Under the pieces are notes generated by a model. That model was not told the DNA's origin. It saw only the letters and a list, made by a program, of their open reading frames with translations, and ran no database searches. This document shows, piece after piece, positions 1 to 34,898 of a stretch of 40,869 bases of DNA (its first letter is position 1; the number at the start of each line of letters is the position of its first letter). The translations under genes were made by a program, and so were the position numbers. The stretch lies in IMG/VR virus record IMGVR_UViG_2541047754_000003. One strand, given 5' to 3'. The stretch comes from a virus. Lineage: Duplodnaviria; Heunggongvirae; Uroviricota; Caudoviricetes.

Positions 1-516
1 ATGAAATTTAAAAAATGTCTTCTGCCTGTGGCAATGTTAGCGTCATTCACTCTGGCAGGATGCCAGTCAAATGCTGATGATCATGCTGCCGATGTTTATC
101 AAACCGATCAACTGAATACCAAACAAGAAACTAAAACCGTTAATATTATTTCCATTCTTCCCGCAAAAGTTGCCGTAGACAACGCCCAAAATAAACGGAA
201 CGCACAAGCCTTCGGCGCGCTTATTGGCGCTGTCGCTGGCGGTGTTATCGGCCACAACGTCGGGTCTGGCAGCAATTCCGGAACGACGGCAGGTGCAGTT
301 GGCGGCGGAGCTGTAGGCGCGGCAGCGGGTTCGATGGTGAATGATAAAACCTTAGTGGAAGGTGTTTCTTTAACATATAAGGAAGGCACCAAAGTGTATA
401 CCTCCACCCAGGTGGGTAAAGAGTGCCAGTTTACGACAGGTTTAGCCGTTGTTATTACCACGACGTATAACGAAACGCGTATTCAGCCAAATACCAAATG
501 TCCTGAAAAGAGCTAA
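1..516 (+). CDS. Outer-membrane lipoprotein, glycine-zipper type (YcfJ/SlyB/OsmB-like); possibly host flank
   Basis: N-terminal signal peptide with lipobox LAGC; Gly/Ala-rich GxxxG-type zipper segment (GALIGAVAGGVIGHNVG...); 171-aa ORF. Confidence 0.6.
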   Translation: MKFKKCLLPVAMLASFTLAGCQSNADDHAADVYQTDQLNTKQETKTVNIISILPAKVAVDNAQNKRNAQAFGALIGAVAGGVIGHNVGSGSNSGTTAGAVGGGAVGAAAGSMVNDKTLVEGVSLTYKEGTKVYTSTQVGKECQFTTGLAVVITTTYNETRIQPNTKCPEKS

Positions 517-531
517 TAATCAGGAGGAGTC

Positions 532-1071
532 ATGAAGAAAGTTTTTCTTTGCGCCATCTTAGCCTCCTTAAGCTATCCGGCTATCGCCTCATCATTGCAG
601 GATCAACTCTCGGCTGTCGCAGAAGCGGAACAGCAAGGTAAAAATGAAGAGCAAAGGCAGCATGACGAATGGGTCGCGGAGCGCAACAGGGAAATCCAGC
701 AAGAGAAGCAACGTCGCGCAAACGCCCAGGCCGCGGCTAATAAAAGAGCGGCAACGGCAGCGGCGAATAAGAAAGCTCGTCAGGATAAACTGGACGCCGA
801 AGCCACTGCGGACAAAAAACGCGATCAAAGTTATGAAGATGAGCTACGCAGCTTAGAGATTCAGAAACAAAAACTGGCGCTGGCGAAAGAAGAAGCCCGC
901 GTCAAGCGCGAAAACGAATTTATCGATCAGGAACTGAAGCACAAAGCTGCGCAAACCGATGTGGTGCAATCTGAAGCTGACGCAAACAGAAATATGACTG
1001 AAGGCGGTCGCGATCTGATGAAAAGCGTGGGTAAAGCAGAAGAGAACAAATCGGACAGCTGGTTTAACTAA
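532..1071 (+). CDS. Secreted, highly charged Lys/Glu/Ala-rich coiled-coil protein of unknown function
   Basis: Strong RBS caGGAGGagtc before ATG; cleavable signal peptide (..SYPAIA-SS); followed by intrinsic terminator. Confidence 0.6.
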   Translation: MKKVFLCAILASLSYPAIASSLQDQLSAVAEAEQQGKNEEQRQHDEWVAERNREIQQEKQRRANAQAAANKRAATAAANKKARQDKLDAEATADKKRDQSYEDELRSLEIQKQKLALAKEEARVKRENEFIDQELKHKAAQTDVVQSEADANRNMTEGGRDLMKSVGKAEENKSDSWFN

Positions 1072-2696: not shown

Positions 2697-3087
2697 CGTC
2701 TTTTCTCCCCGGAATTAAATCGCGTGGATTGTCTGAACGGTGGTAGAGCCATATACCAATACGCACAGCGACAATTGCTGACACGAATGCGCCAGCAGAG
2801 AAAACAATCCCTTTTTCAAAAGAGTCCTGCGTGATGGTAGGGATCAGGCTGGCTATGCCGATAAGAATTGATGCTGCTGGTTTGTAGAAAAGAAGTCCAC
2901 AGAGAAAGCTAAGCATCGATAAGAGTACGCGACGATGAATTGGGTACTCTACCGCAGAGGTAACAAAAATTACCGCACCAGCAAGAGCACCGAGCGCCAC
3001 CTCTGGCGGAACGCCTACGATAACTGCAGCAAGAGAGCTCACACTAAGCCATTGATTTAAAGAATCAGTAGTTAGATGGGCTGACAT
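2683..3087 (-). CDS. Putative holin (multi-TM membrane protein)
   Basis: About 134 aa from first ATG (ORF track starts at GTG 3096); several hydrophobic helices; first gene of lysis cassette after tailspike. Confidence 0.6.
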   Translation of the reverse strand: MSAHLTTDSLNQWLSVSSLAAVIVGVPPEVALGALAGAVIFVTSAVEYPIHRRVLLSMLSFLCGLLFYKPAASILIGIASLIPTITQDSFEKGIVFSAGAFVSAIVAVRIGIWLYHRSDNPRDLIPGRKDDGNA

Positions 3088-6177: not shown

Positions 6178-6192
6178 TTACCTTTCAGGTGA
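6178..6192. promoter_or_regulatory. Operator-like palindrome TTACC-N5-GGTGA (one mismatch to TTACC-N5-GGTAA)
   Basis: Sequence TTACCTTTCAGGTGA upstream of the LexA-box gene. Confidence 0.45.
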
Positions 6193-6229: not shown

Positions 6230-6249
6230 TACTGTATATTTATACAGTT
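6230..6249. promoter_or_regulatory. LexA (SOS) box
   Basis: TACTGTATATTTATACAGTT, 18/20 match to consensus TACTGTATATATATACAGTA with perfect CTGT-N8-ACAG core, about 20 bp upstream of start codon at 6269. Confidence 0.7.
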
Positions 6250-6268
6250 ATTGCATGGAGAAGATAAG

Positions 6269-6526
6269 ATGCAGCAGTATCACTATCCACTGGAAGACGG
6301 ATTTACCGAAAGGATTCACACGCCGGGAGGCGTCAGGTCACTGGTGGAGGGATCGCACTTGATGAAATTACTCCGGGATCTCGATAAGGATGGATTTAAT
6401 GTCGATGGCCCACTTGCCGAACTGACTGCACTGATTAACTACGTCACCAGCTCACAGATGTCTATGCAGGATCTGCAAACACATCTCGACTATTGTGCCG
6501 AACAATTACGAAAACAAACCCGGTAA
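6269..6526 (+). CDS. Small protein homologous to the C-terminal domain of the neighbouring antirepressor; SOS-regulated antirepressor candidate
   Basis: ATG 6269 with GGAG 8 nt upstream; about 45 percent identity by eye to C-terminus of the 7672-8358 product (shared IH.P.GV..L.E.S.LM.LL..L..DG..V.G..AEL...Y...Q.L.DLQTH..Y). Confidence 0.6.
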   Translation: MQQYHYPLEDGFTERIHTPGGVRSLVEGSHLMKLLRDLDKDGFNVDGPLAELTALINYVTSSQMSMQDLQTHLDYCAEQLRKQTR

Positions 6527-7361: not shown

Positions 7362-7405
7362 TTGATTTTAATATTTCTTCGCGTTTATCATTACCTTTGC
7401 GGTAA
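7362..7405 (+). promoter_or_regulatory. Putative ant promoter (-35 TTGATT, -10 TATCAT) overlapped by operator TTACCTTTGCGGTAA (7391-7405)
   Basis: Sigma70-like hexamers with 18-bp spacer; perfect operator palindrome overlapping -10/+1. Confidence 0.5.
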
Positions 7406-7496
7406 ATTTACATCGCACTCCTCTTGTGCCATAGTAATCGGGCACTGGATTTTGCCAGTGCCGGGATTGGCGTCCCGGGTTACTACAGAGGCACAT

Positions 7497-7518
7497 ATGC
7501 CGCATAAGCGGTTTTTTT
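7497..7518 (+). terminator. Weak intrinsic terminator or attenuator in the ant leader
   Basis: Short GC stem (GCCGC/GCGGT) with loop ATAA followed by seven T; preceded by two stable hairpins at 7442-7478. Confidence 0.35.
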
Positions 7519-7671
7519 ATGTGTAAAGCGCACCTATTCTATGGTGGGCTGTGTGGGGGCACCGAAAGGTGCGCCGGGTCCTTTGTAGCCGGTTACGCCA
7601 ACCCTGCACAGTTCACCACCAACCGATTGGCGTCGGTAGTGGTGATTAACCTAACTACAAAGGTGATCACT

Positions 7672-8431: not shown

Positions 8432-8446
8432 TTACCTCAAGGGTAA
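8432..8446. promoter_or_regulatory. Operator palindrome TTACC-N5-GGTAA
   Basis: TTACCTCAAGGGTAA about 60 bp upstream of the 8507 ORF. Confidence 0.6.
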
Positions 8447-8506: not shown

Positions 8507-8686
8507 ATGCGAAACGAAAAATTGCAGATGCGTAGAGCGCAAGCTGCCGCAAGACGTTCTTTCAATGGAAGCGTAGAGTGCGTAAAAGTTACTATGACAA
8601 AAGATCACGCAAGTCGCGTATCCCGCGCTTTCTTTGATTCTCGTAACAATAAGGAAAATTATGAGTTCGTCTGCGTCGCAGAATGA
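8507..8686 (+). CDS. Small ORF (59 aa) overlapping the next gene; candidate antitoxin or partner protein
   Basis: ATG 8507 with GAGGT RBS 6 nt upstream; 26-nt overlap with the 8661 gene; one codon below the ORF-track length cutoff. Confidence 0.4.
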   Translation: MRNEKLQMRRAQAAARRSFNGSVECVKVTMTKDHASRVSRAFFDSRNNKENYEFVCVAE

Positions 8687-9206
8687 TAAAAATCAAATTG
8701 TCAGATATAAGGGTCGAGTATTGCATACGCAAAATTTCTCGGCCCTTTGTGCATCTGATCTTGAGCTGAAGAAAGTATCTGATGCCTTTACCCAGTATTG
8801 GAAAACGGGATACCATCCATCTCTTGGTAAAGATGCTGCATTTGCTCGTCCGACAGAAATGCTTAAACTAAATGTCAGGCATACTCATGTCGATAACCAA
8901 GACTATATTCCAGAAGATAGTGATAAAAAACACACTGGTAAAAAATCATCTTGGGATGCATGGAAAAATATAGCGTCTGTGCAAGTAAAATGCATACCAA
9001 CAAGTGATTGCTTTTTAGTTTATTCGGTAAATCACAATCGTGATGCGCTGGTTATGTTTTTTGTTGACGCAGATGCCCACAACATAACTGAGCAAGAAGA
9101 GTTTAAAGAGGCAGCAATCACTATCAGTTATCAATTCTTTGAGAAAACAAAAACAGAACCAATGCCTTTAGAAGAAGATCTTTTTTCTGATAAATGGAAG
9201 GAATAA
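8661..9206 (+). CDS. Hypothetical protein with YafO-toxin-like motifs (possible ribosome-dependent mRNA interferase)
   Basis: ATG 8661 with AAGGA RBS; motifs D-F-x-Y-W-K-x-G-x-P..GKDA, H-T-H-V and D-C-F-L-V-Y recalled as similar to YafO; not confirmed by search. Confidence 0.5.
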   Translation: MSSSASQNDKNQIVRYKGRVLHTQNFSALCASDLELKKVSDAFTQYWKTGYHPSLGKDAAFARPTEMLKLNVRHTHVDNQDYIPEDSDKKHTGKKSSWDAWKNIASVQVKCIPTSDCFLVYSVNHNRDALVMFFVDADAHNITEQEEFKEAAITISYQFFEKTKTEPMPLEEDLFSDKWKE

Positions 9207-9292: not shown

Positions 9293-9304
9293 GTGACATG
9301 TCAC
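9293..9304. repeat. 12-bp perfect palindrome GTGACATGTCAC (copy 1 of 3)
   Basis: Identical copies at 26576-26587 and 28842-28853, all at gene 3-prime ends bordering the late operon. Confidence 0.6.
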
Positions 9305-19741: not shown

Positions 19742-20349
19742 CAGGACAACCTCGCAATGGTAAACTCGTCAACCGGTGGCTGTGGTTCCTGTGATTCATT
19801 CTGGCTATGCGAGCCAGCACTAAGAATCACGCGATTGTACATATTGAGGGCAAACGTACCGAGGTCTGCATTCCCAGTGAGCGCCATGTTAATAGCTGCC
19901 GCAAGACGCCAGGCCAACGCCTCCATAAAAATGGCATCAAACATGTTCACATCTGAAACGCGAGAGACATACTTGAGCCATGCCTGCGGCTGGTCTGTGT
20001 AGATCAACTTTCCTGTTCCGTTGGTGTCTGCACCAACTTCGTACTGAACGCGCATTGCTGCTGTTGGATTGCGTACACCAGGAAGCATAATTTCAGTAAT
20101 GCGCAGACAATCGGACGGGTACTGGTACGCATATTCCCAGTCAGGCGGTGGATTGCTCGTATCTGCAAGCGCCACGCGTTTGGTAGCAAAGTTCCAGTCA
20201 AAATCAGAAAGAACAGCATCACGGCAGGCCTCAAAGTGCAGCGAACATTCCCCCGCTTCCTTGCTGGCTTCCGTCAGGCTGTTAATACTGCGGCTGTTGC
20301 CAATATTGGACAGCGCACGATTACAGATCTCTACTACAGAGGCCATCAC
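19741..20349 (-). CDS. Tail structural protein (202 aa), tail adaptor/tubular-A candidate
   Basis: ORF with ATGA overlap to downstream 823-aa gene. Confidence 0.6.
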   Translation of the reverse strand: MMASVVEICNRALSNIGNSRSINSLTEASKEAGECSLHFEACRDAVLSDFDWNFATKRVALADTSNPPPDWEYAYQYPSDCLRITEIMLPGVRNPTAAMRVQYEVGADTNGTGKLIYTDQPQAWLKYVSRVSDVNMFDAIFMEALAWRLAAAINMALTGNADLGTFALNMYNRVILSAGSHSQNESQEPQPPVDEFTIARLS

Positions 20350-25515: not shown

Positions 25516-25552
25516 TTGACATTTAACGCGCGAATTATTACCTTTCAGGTAA
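25516..25552 (+). promoter_or_regulatory. Putative promoter (-35 TTGACA at 25516-25521) with operator TTACCTTTCAGGTAA (25538-25552)
   Basis: Consensus -35 hexamer; perfect operator palindrome immediately downstream; oriented toward tRNA and cargo gene. Confidence 0.45.
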
Positions 25553-25874: not shown

Positions 25875-25951
25875 GTGGCATTAGCTCAGTTGGACAGAGC
25901 AACCGCCTTCTAAGCGGTTGGTCGCAGGTTCGAATCCTGCATGCCACGCCA
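25875..25951 (+). tRNA. tRNA-Arg (anticodon TCT), phage-encoded
   Basis: 77 nt; 7-bp acceptor stem GTGGCAT/ATGCCAC, D-arm TAGCTCAGTTGGACAGAGCA, anticodon loop CTTCTAA, T-arm GGTTCGAATCC, 3-prime GCCA; acceptor stem differs from E. coli argU as I recall it. Confidence 0.9.
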
Positions 25952-26037: not shown

Positions 26038-26114
26038 CAGCAGGACGCCATTGCGATGACTTCATGCTGTAAACCAGTACAGCCACGGAAGGCATAACTC
26101 ATTGCTTCCAGTTC

Positions 26115-26575: not shown

Positions 26576-26587
26576 AGTGACATGTCA
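26576..26587. repeat. 12-bp palindrome GTGACATGTCAC (copy 2 of 3)
   Basis: Exact copy 4 nt after the stop of the cargo gene. Confidence 0.6.
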
Positions 26588-26591
26588 CAAA

Positions 26592-26662: not shown

Positions 26663-28138
26663 TTAAGCATAGGGATCGTAATCTGTGATGGCCTTGCCTT
26701 GCTGGTTCTGCTGACCGGGAATTCGCAGACGCTTCGACACAGGGAACGCAAACGTCAGCAGTAGCGCATCGCCTTTACCAGGAGAACGCCCAAGCCGCTC
26801 CTTGATATCTTCCTTCTGTTCGATAATGATTTTACCGTCCACGCGAACTTTGTACTCTGCCGCCGACAGGTCGTCCGCTGTTTCCTGGTCATCCAGCATG
26901 CCGCCCAGCCTCAGCCATGTCTTGCATGAATTGAACATCTCCCCACGCTTGTTGAGCATCTGCGGGTCAGTAGACGCGCCACCGAACGGAACAAGTTGCC
27001 ATGTACGACCCCATCCGTCACCGATTGACTTCAAACCGGTTCCGTAACCGAAGTCGATGAACACCGCGTCAGCCTGATACTGGTCTTCAAAGTCAGCGAT
27101 ACGCTTTGCCATAATCAGATCGTCAGTGGTCTTGTTGCCAGTCCACAGCACCTTACTGTGCAGCCCCTGCCGCAGGTATATCACAGCGTCATCAACGCCT
27201 GAGTATGCCGGGTCAACGCCGATTATCACCGGAGCATGTGCAACCTGCGCAGCGGTGACCACCCGTTTCATTGCCTCGTCAGTAAGTCCGGTAGGGATAA
27301 ACTGCAATTCCGATGCATCCGGGAATATGCCGCGCACACGGATTTTAACGAAGTCGCTGTCTTCCCCGTAGTCATCAACCCATTTCTGCAACTGCTGTTT
27401 GTTGGTGCCTTCCACCGTCCGGCTGTCAATCTGCGCAGTTTTCCAGCGGTGTTTATATTTGCGGAAACATTCGCGGAAACGTCCGGTATTACGCGTCGGG
27501 TTTCCGAACGCCACCCAGATAATCTCAGTGTCTTCGTCCGTTAGCGCACCCTCGGCAACTTCCCACACCAGATCCGCAATGTTCGACGCTTCATCGAATA
27601 CCACGATGATGCGTTTGCGCTCGTTGTGTAGTCCGGCGAATGCCTCAGTGTTGTGCTCAGACCAGGGTATTGCGTCAGCTCGCCACCGCTTGTCGTGTCC
27701 AGGATCATTGCTGTACATCGCGGTAGCGGTACAGGTAAACCAGTCTTTCGTGATAGCAAGGTTCGACCACTTGATAATTTCCGGCCAGGTCTTCGTTCGT
27801 AGCTGGTTGTCGGTGTTGGCGGTCACCACAACCTTACAATCCTCGCAAGTGGACATGCCCCAGTTGATCAGCATTGAGATGAATGCGGATTTACCAATAC
27901 CGTGACCCGAAGCGCGTGCCAGCATAAGCGGCTGATAGCGCGTCTCTGGATTCTGCAGGTGATCACGTATCTCTCGGAACGCATCAGCCTGCCACTGACG
28001 TGGACCGGTGGCATGTGCCAGTTCAGTCCCATCTTCCCCCCACGGGAACGCATAGAGGGCATAGCCAAGCGGATCGTGAGTGAACCCTGCAATATCCTCG
28101 ATTAACTGCTCTTCAGGAGATAACGCTGTATCTGTCAC
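26663..28138 (-). CDS. Terminase large subunit
   Basis: 491 aa; Walker-A-like ASGHGIGKS near N-terminus; 4-nt overlap with small-subunit gene; followed by portal. Confidence 0.9.
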   Translation of the reverse strand: MTDTALSPEEQLIEDIAGFTHDPLGYALYAFPWGEDGTELAHATGPRQWQADAFREIRDHLQNPETRYQPLMLARASGHGIGKSAFISMLINWGMSTCEDCKVVVTANTDNQLRTKTWPEIIKWSNLAITKDWFTCTATAMYSNDPGHDKRWRADAIPWSEHNTEAFAGLHNERKRIIVVFDEASNIADLVWEVAEGALTDEDTEIIWVAFGNPTRNTGRFRECFRKYKHRWKTAQIDSRTVEGTNKQQLQKWVDDYGEDSDFVKIRVRGIFPDASELQFIPTGLTDEAMKRVVTAAQVAHAPVIIGVDPAYSGVDDAVIYLRQGLHSKVLWTGNKTTDDLIMAKRIADFEDQYQADAVFIDFGYGTGLKSIGDGWGRTWQLVPFGGASTDPQMLNKRGEMFNSCKTWLRLGGMLDDQETADDLSAAEYKVRVDGKIIIEQKEDIKERLGRSPGKGDALLLTFAFPVSKRLRIPGQQNQQGKAITDYDPYA

Positions 28139-28731
28139 TGATTACCATCCTGACGTTCTTTGAGTCGCTTCCTGGCTGCTGCTATGCGATCAGCAATTGT
28201 CACATTCACATTAACATCCAGACGTTCTTTGAATGCGTTGACATCAACATGCTTACCAATCAGCTCAAGGTTCTTCACCTTGTCAGGCCATTTAATTTTT
28301 TTGAGGATTGTCTCTATTGAATCCTCGTTCATGTTCATGATGGTCGATGACAGATCAAAGCCACTAAGCGTAGTGCGCCAGATTTTCGGCCACTCACGGA
28401 TTGGTTTAAGGCTCCCATCGTCGTTGAGGATGTCGATCACGTCCATCTGGTCGATCTCCACCAGGCGCATGAGAACGTAATCAGCACTGACACGCATTCG
28501 TTTGTTGCGCTCCTCCATCAACTCGGCAATCCGTTTCTGAATGCGTTCATCGCGCATCATGACACTGGCTTTAACTGCCGCTGTATTTGGGGAGAATCCT
28601 GCGTTAATCGCAGCCTGAGTCTGGTTTTCAGGCGTTTTGATGTATGACTGGCAATAAGCCTCCTGCATTGCTGTGAGCGGCTTAAATTGCGTTGATTTGC
28701 GTTTATAGGTTTTAGGTTCAGCAGGCATCAT
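28135..28731 (-). CDS. Terminase small subunit
   Basis: Start set at ATG 28731 (MMPAEPK...), because the ORF-track TTG extension covers a terminator and operators; basic DNA-binding N-terminal region; immediately upstream of large subunit. Confidence 0.7.
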   Translation of the reverse strand: MMPAEPKTYKRKSTQFKPLTAMQEAYCQSYIKTPENQTQAAINAGFSPNTAAVKASVMMRDERIQKRIAELMEERNKRMRVSADYVLMRLVEIDQMDVIDILNDDGSLKPIREWPKIWRTTLSGFDLSSTIMNMNEDSIETILKKIKWPDKVKNLELIGKHVDVNAFKERLDVNVNVTIADRIAAARKRLKERQDGNQ

Positions 28732-28763
28732 AACCACCGTGGTAATTGTTACCGTTGTGGTAA
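28731..28763. promoter_or_regulatory. Tandem operator-like palindromes at the head of the late operon
   Basis: TAACCACCGTGGTAA (28731-28745, one mismatch) and TTACCGTTGTGGTAA (28749-28763, perfect). Confidence 0.55.
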
Positions 28764-28774
28764 TAGTACCATGC

Positions 28775-28800
28775 AAAATAAAGCCGCCATAGTTGGCGGC
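28775..28800 (-). terminator. Rho-independent terminator upstream of the late operon
   Basis: Hairpin GCCGCC-AACTAT-GGCGGC followed by TTTATTTTG on the minus strand. Confidence 0.5.
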
Positions 28801-28841
28801 AGTATTCAAAATCCATCAAATTCATCATGCATAATCTACTC

Positions 28842-28853
28842 GTGACATGTCAC
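28842..28853. repeat. 12-bp palindrome GTGACATGTCAC (copy 3 of 3)
   Basis: Exact copy overlapping the stop codon of the 28850-29188 gene. Confidence 0.6.
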
Positions 28854-29188
28854 ACTATTAATTTCGTTTCATGCCAGCCTTTAGTCACCCAGCATTGCGA
28901 GTCACCATTACACGGGCATGAATTAACTGGAACTCTCTCGCCGCACTTACCGCAACGTTTTCTGCTGATCGATTTTATACGCCCGCGCACGCGTGCATCA
29001 TCCTGGCGGATCAGTAACGCTATATACTCACCAAATTCGTAAGGCGCACGCCCGGGGCGACGCGTGGCACAGTTACGCTCCAGCATTTCAATTTCCTGAG
29101 CATCAAGCACAATCTCCAGCTTACGCACACCAGATGCAGCTTGTCTGGCTCTCTGAGCGGCTTTGCGCTCTGCTGCTGATTTAGCCAT
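28850..29188 (-). CDS. Zinc-ribbon protein (112 aa), candidate regulator
   Basis: ATG 29188; basic N-terminal helix and C-terminal Cys cluster C-G-K-C...C-P-C...C; last gene before terminase. Confidence 0.55.
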   Translation of the reverse strand: MAKSAAERKAAQRARQAASGVRKLEIVLDAQEIEMLERNCATRRPGRAPYEFGEYIALLIRQDDARVRGRIKSISRKRCGKCGERVPVNSCPCNGDSQCWVTKGWHETKLIV

Positions 29189-32490: not shown

Positions 32491-32567
32491 TTACCCCTTA
32501 GGTAATTAAAAACCACATAAGACACGAAATCAATAGATTTTAGAATATTTTATTACCTCGAAGGTAA
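32491..32567. promoter_or_regulatory. Pair of operator palindromes TTACC-N5-GGTAA inside the early operon
   Basis: TTACCCCTTAGGTAA (32491-32505) and TTACCTCGAAGGTAA (32553-32567), both perfect arms. Confidence 0.6.
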
Positions 32568-34498: not shown

Positions 34499-34513
34499 TT
34501 ACCTTTGAGGTAC
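34499..34513. promoter_or_regulatory. Operator-like palindrome TTACC-N5-GGTAC (one mismatch)
   Basis: TTACCTTTGAGGTAC between cro terminator and the small Cys/His gene. Confidence 0.45.
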
Positions 34514-34520
34514 GAATAGA

Positions 34521-34546
34521 TATGAAAAGACCGCCGGGTGGCGGTC
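34521..34546 (-). terminator. Rho-independent terminator downstream of cro (tR1-like)
   Basis: 7-bp stem GACCGCC/GGCGGTC followed by TCTTTTCA on the minus strand. Confidence 0.5.
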
Positions 34547-34568
34547 TACAGAGGGTTGTAGCTGGATA

Positions 34569-34835: not shown

Positions 34836-34898
34836 TCACCCATAAGGTAACAAAAATCAAGGATAGTTACCTATGAGGTGCATTTACCTGTTGGGTAA
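34836..34898. promoter_or_regulatory. Tripartite operator (OR-like) between cro-like and repressor genes
   Basis: TCACCCATAAGGTAA (34836-34850), TTACCTATGAGGTGC (34867-34881), TTACCTGTTGGGTAA (34884-34898); first site lies between candidate -35/-10 of the leftward promoter. Confidence 0.7.

Follow-up and report, generated by a model that had tools for sequence, protein, structure and literature searches.

In phage lambda, where late transcription is organized around Q, QBE-PR′ and tR′, a regulatory gene stands last in the early region and is followed by a terminator and then by the late genes. In phage P1, a single repressor, C1, acts at many dispersed operators, and the late genes need Lpa. 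To our knowledge, the timing of late genes in ε15-type phages, which have no Q, N, Ogr or Mor factor, has not been worked out. A closely similar immunity switch that has been described is the Rep–Ant system of SPC32H and SPN1S (PDB 5d50, 5d4z): SPC32H Rep binds palindromic sites as a tetramer, one tetramer is enough for repression (PMC9638917), and the tetramer is dismantled by the antirepressor Ant (PMC9638917, PMC9986798). Here, we analyzed a 40,869-nucleotide stretch of viral DNA (IMG/VR record IMGVR_UViG_2541047754_000003; Caudoviricetes), which in its full length we call the window, and concentrated on positions 28731–28853 of its minus strand, where the early-right operon meets the first late operon, that for packaging. 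The packaging operon, terS–terL, most likely has an extended −10 promoter of its own that would be gated by the phage's repressor Rep, and a palindrome at the same junction most likely belongs to a separate system together with a 112-amino-acid (aa) protein.

Judged by its sequence, the window represents a temperate podophage, one of the ε15/phiV10/TL-2011b group within Uetakevirus (ε15/phiV10/SPN1S-like); in a sequence search, about 2.5 kb around the junction showed 93–98% identity to phages of this type. The gp49/terS junction of ε15 (NC_004775.2) resembles that of the window in gene order, in a palindrome at the stop codon, in a hairpin, in a TG-n-TACTAT element and in a pair of TTACC-type sites. 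The two differ in DNA identity (about 75%) and in the palindrome-to-terminator spacer, which measures 41 nt in the window but 22 nt in ε15, and the ε15 record annotates neither the palindrome, nor any promoter, nor the second operator. SPN1S shares the layout of operators and palindromes, and the window Rep is a full-length homologue of the SPC32H/SPN1S repressor. As in lambda, a regulator-like gene closes the early region ahead of a terminator and the late genes; in contrast to lambda, the window has no Q-family protein among the early ORFs scanned, appears to have its own late promoter after the terminator, and belongs to a group in which the distance from the palindromic site to promoter or terminator is not fixed. 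The scattered Rep operators recall P1, although C1 and Rep are unrelated, and whereas the P1 late genes need Lpa, the packaging operon of the window carries operators and has no recognizable late activator.

An earlier note on this junction had described a zinc-ribbon gene, a palindrome, an intrinsic terminator and two operator palindromes, and direct reading of the minus strand bears out all of these elements and their positions (Table 1). Their abundance also exceeds chance, both for the operator consensus and for the palindrome, as detailed below.

Table 1. Coordinates of the junction elements and of related features elsewhere in the window
Feature	Position	Strand or type	Remarks
112-aa protein gene	28853..29188; stop codon 28850–28852	−	predicted ribbon-helix-helix and Cys4 zinc protein; last early-right gene
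PAL1	28842..28853	palindrome	GTGACATGTCAC; overlaps stop codon of 112-aa gene
Intrinsic terminator T1	28775..28800	−	GCCGCCA-ACTA-TGGCGGC + TTTATTTT; closes early-right operon
Candidate extended −10	28763..28771	−	TG-G-TACTAT; predicted transcription start near 28756
Operator O1	28749..28763	palindrome	TTACCACAACGGTAA; perfect consensus
Operator O2	28731..28745	palindrome	TTACCACGGTGGTTA; 1 mismatch; 18 bp from O1
terS	28138..28731	−	198 aa from ATG at 28731; Pfam Terminase_2, E 1e-29; annotations of relatives
terL	26663..28138	−	directly after terS
PAL2	26577..26588	palindrome	GTGACATGTCAC; between terL stop and convergent + strand gene; 4 nt from terminator hairpin
Putative Rep operator	25538..25552		head of portal/structural unit; ε15 counterpart annotated 2931..2947
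PAL3	9293..9304	palindrome	GTGACATGTCAC; directly upstream of terminator GGCCGC-TTTC-GCGGCC + T-tract ending long structural operon
Putative Rep operator	6178..6192		1 mismatch; about 105 bp upstream of tailspike start (6073); ε15 counterpart 19895..19911
Rep	34954..35538	+	194-aa prophage repressor with two helix-turn-helix motifs; PHROG and Pfam helix-turn-helix matches

Operators and a candidate promoter ahead of terS

The consensus TTACC-N5-GGTAA is found in 10 perfect copies in the window, all of them intergenic, compared with 0.03 in shuffled sequences, and in five further copies with one mismatch. O1 and O2 conform to a consensus identical to that of the operator clusters that flank the Rep gene at 34836–34898 and 35596–35672, in OL/OR-like positions, and O2 spans both the Shine-Dalgarno GGTGG (28738–28734) and the A of the terS ATG (28731–28729). 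Rep itself aligns over its full length with SPC32H Rep (PDB 5d50_A, E 4e-42). In the ε15 RefSeq record, a protein_bind feature labeled "repressor" lies at 12..27, just before terS, and the same label is given to sites before gp3 and the tailspike gene, whose counterparts we find where the portal and tailspike units begin. The operator layout is the same in SPN1S and in Klebsiella phage Kp4865-1, and the latter has kept the TTACC and GGTAA half-sites even though its Rep is only 45% identical. From the consensus shared with the Rep-flanking sites, together with the ε15 label at the same position, we infer that O1 and O2 are sites of the phage's own repressor, and Rep binding is predicted here.

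The spacing of these sites takes two forms. A tandem pair separated by 17–18 bp, like that of O1 and O2, is also present in the OR region (34867/34884). Pairs located 62–63 bp apart bracket promoters at 32491/32553 and 35596/35658 in the window, and further such pairs are found in ε15 (35907/35969 and 32555/32617) and Kp4865-1 (9526/9588). This suggests two geometries of binding by a Rep tetramer, one looped and one adjacent. At the portal head, we also observe a TTGACA promoter on the plus strand (25516) that faces tRNA-Arg(TCT) at 25875–25951 and is overlapped by the Rep operator at 25538.

The candidate promoter lies between T1 and O1, and the last T of its −10 element is the first T of the operator. 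We compared 22 distinct terS upstream sequences, taken from phage genomes and IMG/VR contigs across four host genera, and found TGnTA(C/G/T)TAT abutting O1 in the E. coli, Salmonella, Enterobacter and Klebsiella lineages alike. The motif survives even where the DNA upstream is unrelated, in Enterobacter and Klebsiella relatives that have the end of an inserted UmuD-like gene and no terminator at this position. The same geometry, in which TTACC begins with the final T of a −10 hexamer, recurs at the operators at 8432, 7391 and 32553. Activity of the −10 element is suggested by this conservation, and a Rep-gated extended −10 promoter of its own is the most likely arrangement for terS–terL. In the Enterobacter and Klebsiella relatives, the additional gene between the 112-aa protein gene and terS has a strong LexA-box promoter, TTGACT-17-GATTAT overlapping TACTGTTTAAATRTACAGTA; its product is UmuD-like in BUCT554 and Kp4865-1 and different in the Klebsiella phi13.3 relative.

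T1 has the features of an intrinsic terminator, since the transcribed strand carries a GC-rich hairpin and, directly behind it, a U-tract, with a 7-bp stem (28800–28794/28789–28783), a 4-nt loop and an 8-nt T-rich tail (28782–28775). Its folding energy is −14.5 kcal/mol (z −4.1), and the equivalent hairpin after gp49 is labeled a terminator in the ε15 RefSeq record (39646..39672). A sub-threshold rseX-like Rfam match over the stretch from palindrome to terminator (E 0.12) was judged to be noise driven by the terminator. On the early side, the ATG of the 112-aa protein gene overlaps the stop codon of the upstream ASCH-like gene (ATGGCTAA), which identifies it as the last gene of the early-right operon. 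On the late side, several public records annotate a longer terS open reading frame (ORF), at 28135–28809 (−) in the window, 41..715 in phiV10 and 1..669 in SPN1S; frames of this length, among them the 224-aa ORF of phiV10 with its TTG start, would cross T1 as well as the two operators. More probably, terS begins as in the ε15 annotation, at the ATG at 28731, for which GGTGG provides the ribosome-binding site. We ruled out a genome end or cos site at 28849, as the phiV10 record was merely opened after the gp55 stop codon.

In the model that we favor, to which as a whole we assign a probability of about 60%, early-right transcription would end at T1, and terS–terL would be transcribed from its own weak extended −10 sigma-70 promoter after this terminator. 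In the lysogen, Rep, probably as one tetramer on O1 and O2, would occlude the start site and the leader; upon induction, the LexA-controlled Ant would remove Rep and the promoter would fire. The late region would be split into units for packaging, portal and tailspike, each with a Rep site, and timing may come from weak promoters, graded operator affinity and genome copy number. With its own promoter, a late unit would need no antiterminator of the Q or N type. This agrees with the failure of the earlier note to recognize a Q or N protein, which holds at the sensitivity of Pfam and PHROG: no Q, N, Ogr or Mor family match was found in the early-left and early-right ORFs scanned, and the Q families PF03589, PF06530 and PF06323 matched neither the 112-aa protein, nor 58 of its homologues, nor the other early ORFs scanned. 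The matches that the early-region scan did return were DnaT-like and lambda P-like replication proteins, Ea22, DUF551, DUF1064 and AlpA-like Xis proteins and a PerC-like activator (38482..38781), and the same scans found Ant proteins outside the early regions.

Several features weigh against this model. The −35 sequence, TATGGC with a spacer of 17 bp, is a poor one and lies within T1, so that the promoter would depend on the TG extension alone and is probably weak. The portal and tailspike heads have operators with weaker −10 matches, which makes a separate promoter less clear for every late unit. Simple derepression offers no obvious delay between early and late transcription, and the PerC-like activator and a Cro-like protein could be further regulators of the terS head. 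The former, a PerC-family "transcriptional activator" of the early-left operon (+ strand), is the only other candidate positive regulator that we saw.

A palindrome probably paired with a ribbon-helix-helix protein

The palindrome GTGACATGTCAC occurs in three exact copies in the window, against 0.0024 expected (P ~2e-9). All three positions are matched in ε15 and SPN1S: at the gp49 stop codon, after terL (ε15 2142, SPN1S 2174, and also Kp4865-1 15252) and before the terminator of the structural operon (ε15 19517, SPN1S 19662). The association with the gene for the 112-aa protein extends well beyond this group, as the gene carries the site at its 3′ end in ε15, SPN1S, PAT1, Klebsiella phages, Omnitron, ZF40, Chlobot and N15, where the version with a TG center, GTGACTGGTCAC, overlaps the gp46 stop codon. 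In a Mu-like prophage, GTGACCGGTCAC, with a CG center, lies inside the 3′ end of the homologous gene. Overall, a palindrome follows the gene in most of the backbones examined, and one N15-like prophage that encodes the homologue has no such site. In ZF40 and Chlobot, the palindrome follows a different stop codon by 2–6 nt, a position that argues against its being kept merely as coding sequence. Among 120 IMG/VR stretches bearing TTGTGACATGTCAC, 37 also contain the gene within the same short stretch, and in 27 of these 37 the palindrome lies between −29 and +8 nt of the gene end.

The half-sites and their N2 spacing are invariant, and no variant with N1, N3 or N4 spacing was present in the ten sequences scanned, seven of which are whole phage genomes. 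Exactly three sites are present in each of the window, ε15, SPN1S, ZF40 (5125, 7622 and 14944) and Omnitron (14784, 23734 and 37762), three in the 18-kb right arm of N15 (28550, 33237 and 39269) and four in Kp4865-1. The extra copies in ZF40 and N15 are near the immunity/replication region, partly inside coding DNA, and far from terminators. From the palindrome center to the −10 element we measure 79.5 bp in the window and 61.5 bp in ε15, whereas in Kp4865-1 the two are separated by about 430 bp that include a LexA-box promoter and a gene; a distance this variable ties the palindrome to the gene rather than to the terS promoter.

In the window, ε15 and SPN1S, all three sites precede a terminator hairpin by 0–41 nt. 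Sites in Uetakevirus tend to adjoin terminator hairpins: the palindrome comes first, ahead of the terminator, in 50 of 136 distinct contexts (thirty of them at 0–4 nt), compared with 84 of 2000 random positions, and the reverse order, terminator and then palindrome, is seen in 30 of 135 contexts. With 50 contexts in one order and 30 in the other, we set aside any clear polarity. We likewise rejected an RNA hairpin as the functional form, since the palindrome folds at −2.9 kcal/mol, no better than shuffled sequences, and its symmetric loop points to recognition as double-stranded DNA.

The 112-aa protein is a homologue of ε15 gp49, phiV10 gp55 and N15 gp46 and matches phrog_536 with an E of 1.6e-54; the family is small, as 1.84 billion representatives include only 154 of its clusters (50% identity). 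A confident AlphaFold model built from 59 diverse homologues (pLDDT 93) presents a ribbon-helix-helix (RHH) domain, with the strand-helix-helix fold, followed by a C-terminal Cys4 zinc module, and the four C-terminal cysteines are conserved across these homologues. Sequence and fold searches revealed no similarity to Ogr/Delta, Mor/C or Q, the activator and antiterminator families against which the earlier note had suggested a check; the fold is that of the RHH superfamily. A search of BFVD gave no useful match. The zinc part shows a weak likeness, at the level of sequence, to the TraR/DksA zinc finger (PDB profiles TraR, E 0.02, and YbiI, E 0.04; hhalign probability 71%). DksA and TraR have a helix followed by a CxxC-N17-CxxC zinc finger and bind in the secondary channel of RNA polymerase. 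The 112-aa protein differs from them in that its fourth cysteine lies elsewhere and the acidic N-terminal tip is absent, and it has neither a Pfam match nor a fold match to TraR/DksA. A TraR-like fold was therefore set aside, as the signal is a weak sequence-profile match with nothing structural behind it.

Compared with the RHH regulators Arc, CopG, AmrZ, TacA and TraM, the phage family adds the Cys4 module, and it has its site where its own gene ends instead of at the promoter. The simplest reading of the pairing of gene and site is that an RHH dimer of the 112-aa protein probably binds GTGAC-N2-GTCAC. The half-sites are the same as those of the E. coli matS site GTGACRNYGTCAC (PMC6907758). 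The spacing differs from that of matS (13 bp, GTGAC-N3-GTCAC), as in every phage examined it is N2 and never N3. Homology of the 112-aa protein to MatP is not detectable by hhalign (probability 0.7%), and the phage protein lacks the four-helix bundle of MatP and has a zinc module in place of the coiled coil. We regard MatP/matS as a resemblance and not as evidence of membership.

Our literature search for GTGACATGTCAC found no paper with the sequence, and the RHH-zinc gene with its sites is seen in podo-, sipho-, myo- and Mu-like backbones. The module of gene and palindrome appears to be new, and it is the new lead of this analysis. Most likely it is a system separate from the gating of terS, composed of a dimeric DNA-binding protein and about three sites per genome, and the palindrome may have a role related to boundaries or termination, or in bridging of the MatP type.

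Alternative explanations for late-gene control

The earlier note had proposed that late transcription is gated by operator occupancy, by the zinc-ribbon protein acting as an activator, or by both. The first part is strengthened by the shared Rep-site consensus, the ε15 label and the conserved −10 element; the second is weakened by the RHH fold, the variable distance and the company that the homologues keep. In N15, gp46 is encoded alongside N15 Q; in an N15-like prophage, the homologue accompanies Phage_antiter_Q; in ZF40, gp22 is found together with the Q-like gp25; and in a Mu-like prophage, the homologue lies just upstream of gemA and mor. In all of these elements it is an early-region gene. 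Such coexistence with Q or Mor makes it unlikely that this family is the late activator. Classical activation, in which the zinc-ribbon protein at the palindrome would stimulate the weak terS promoter from upstream, is very improbable in our view, even though the poor −35 would suit it and some class I activators can act over a distance like that between the palindrome center and the predicted start, which lies about 91 bp downstream. The 18-bp difference between the window and ε15 in the distance from palindrome to −10 is not a whole number of helical turns, the interval grows to hundreds of base pairs in Kp4865-1, a terminator stands between site and promoter, and the family has no similarity to known activators of the Ogr/Delta or Mor/C type. 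Somewhat less improbable, but still doubtful, is a local antitermination akin to that of Q, in which the 112-aa protein on GTGACATGTCAC would engage RNA polymerase and cause read-through of T1, with GTGACA-18-CATGAT taking the part of PR′ and T1 that of tR′. The gene occupies the position of Q, last among the early genes and before the terminator and late genes; on either strand the palindrome matches five of six −35 positions, and in the window, ε15 and Omnitron a weak −10 follows at 17–18 bp; palindromes stand before terminators at the frequencies given above; and the C-terminal part has its weak likeness to a zinc finger that binds RNA polymerase. Against this, the geometry of the weak GTGACA-18-CATGAT element, which overlaps the palindrome and is followed by T1, is not conserved and is absent from the Klebsiella and Enterobacter relatives, in which the element after PAL1 is not a terminator but a LexA-box promoter with a gene. 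Homologues are found alongside genuine Q or Mor proteins, the extra sites of ZF40 and N15 lie in coding DNA far from terminators, the order of terminator and then palindrome is common, and the protein has no structural match to TraR or Q.

Read-through with roadblocks is a better contender, although we consider it unlikely: late transcripts would come mainly from the early-right promoter and pass a leaky T1, and in the lysogen the Rep sites would act as stoperator-like blocks to elongation. Such blocks would account for operators placed downstream of T1, inside the terS 5′ leader, for Rep sites at the portal and tailspike heads that lack a convincing −10, and for a second terminator-then-operator junction after cro (34552–34528, then 34513–34499). 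T1, however, is a strong hairpin with its T-rich tail, TGnTAnTAT is kept even in relatives that have neither a terminator nor the end of an early operon ahead of it, and the Rep sites are palindromic and promoter-proximal, unlike the stoperators of L5, which are oriented and asymmetric. That the palindrome, the repeats before terS, or both are recognition sites for terminase (pac/cos-type) is the least credible proposal and, in our judgment, highly improbable. The sites do stand immediately ahead of terS, and terS–terL has a palindrome on either side; yet the TTACC sites, labeled repressor sites in ε15, are found again in the immunity region and at ant, phages whose terminases are unrelated (ZF40, N15, Chlobot and Omnitron) also have the palindrome after the RHH gene, and the start of the phiV10 record at this point reflects only its having been opened behind the last stop codon. 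A broader proposal, which we put forward tentatively and regard as rather improbable, is that the RHH-zinc protein and its sites form a portable system of temperate phages, not described before, that has multiple DNA sites and in Uetakevirus would mark the ends of transcription units and would serve either local termination control in place of Q or looping of the MatP type. The Rep-gated terS promoter remains the reading that we prefer. The gating of the packaging operon by operators is supported, but the layout of terminator and repressor sites on which it draws was already public for ε15.

Neighboring regulatory features and implications

The window also contains probable elements of an antirepressor circuit. 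A LexA-box-like palindrome, TACTGTATATTTATACAGT, at 6230–6248 directly precedes a 91-aa ORF (6251–6526, +), and this ORF and the C terminus of the large, 279-aa Ant match the same PHROGs (450 and 15539); both match SPC32H Ant or its PHROGs. By these matches, the 91-aa ORF is probably an SOS-controlled antirepressor of the SPC32H type. Between 7391 and 8358 (+) lies an immI module of the P1 type, in which a Rep operator at 7391 abuts a TATCAT −10 and is followed by an isrK-like RNA (7442–7518) and a C4 antisense RNA (7537–7623), both above the Rfam gathering score, and then by the 279-aa Bro-N/Ant protein. P1 has an immI (c4-ant) module of this kind, and in the window the RNAs before ant stand under a repressor operator.

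Other features are scattered. A YafO-toxin-like protein (8634–9206, +) is encoded behind the Rep operator at 8432. A second box, CTGT-N8-ACAG at 26067–26082, lies before a 140-aa gene (to 26572, +) that converges on terL. Right behind the Cro-like gene stands a strong terminator (GACCGCC-ACCC-GGCGGTC + TTTTC), and 15 nt beyond it comes a Rep-type site, GTACCTCAAAGGTAA, the whole spanning 34499–34552 (−).

For ε15-type phages, the analysis points to a concrete answer to the question of late timing, namely a Rep-covered extended −10 before terS, with separate Rep sites before the portal and tailspike units. This would be of use in the engineering of phiV10-type reporter phages and in the reading of prophage annotations, such as those with long terS ORFs. 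The second system at the junction would constitute a small, defined protein–DNA pair that is spread over very different temperate phages and has half-sites identical to those of chromosomal matS.

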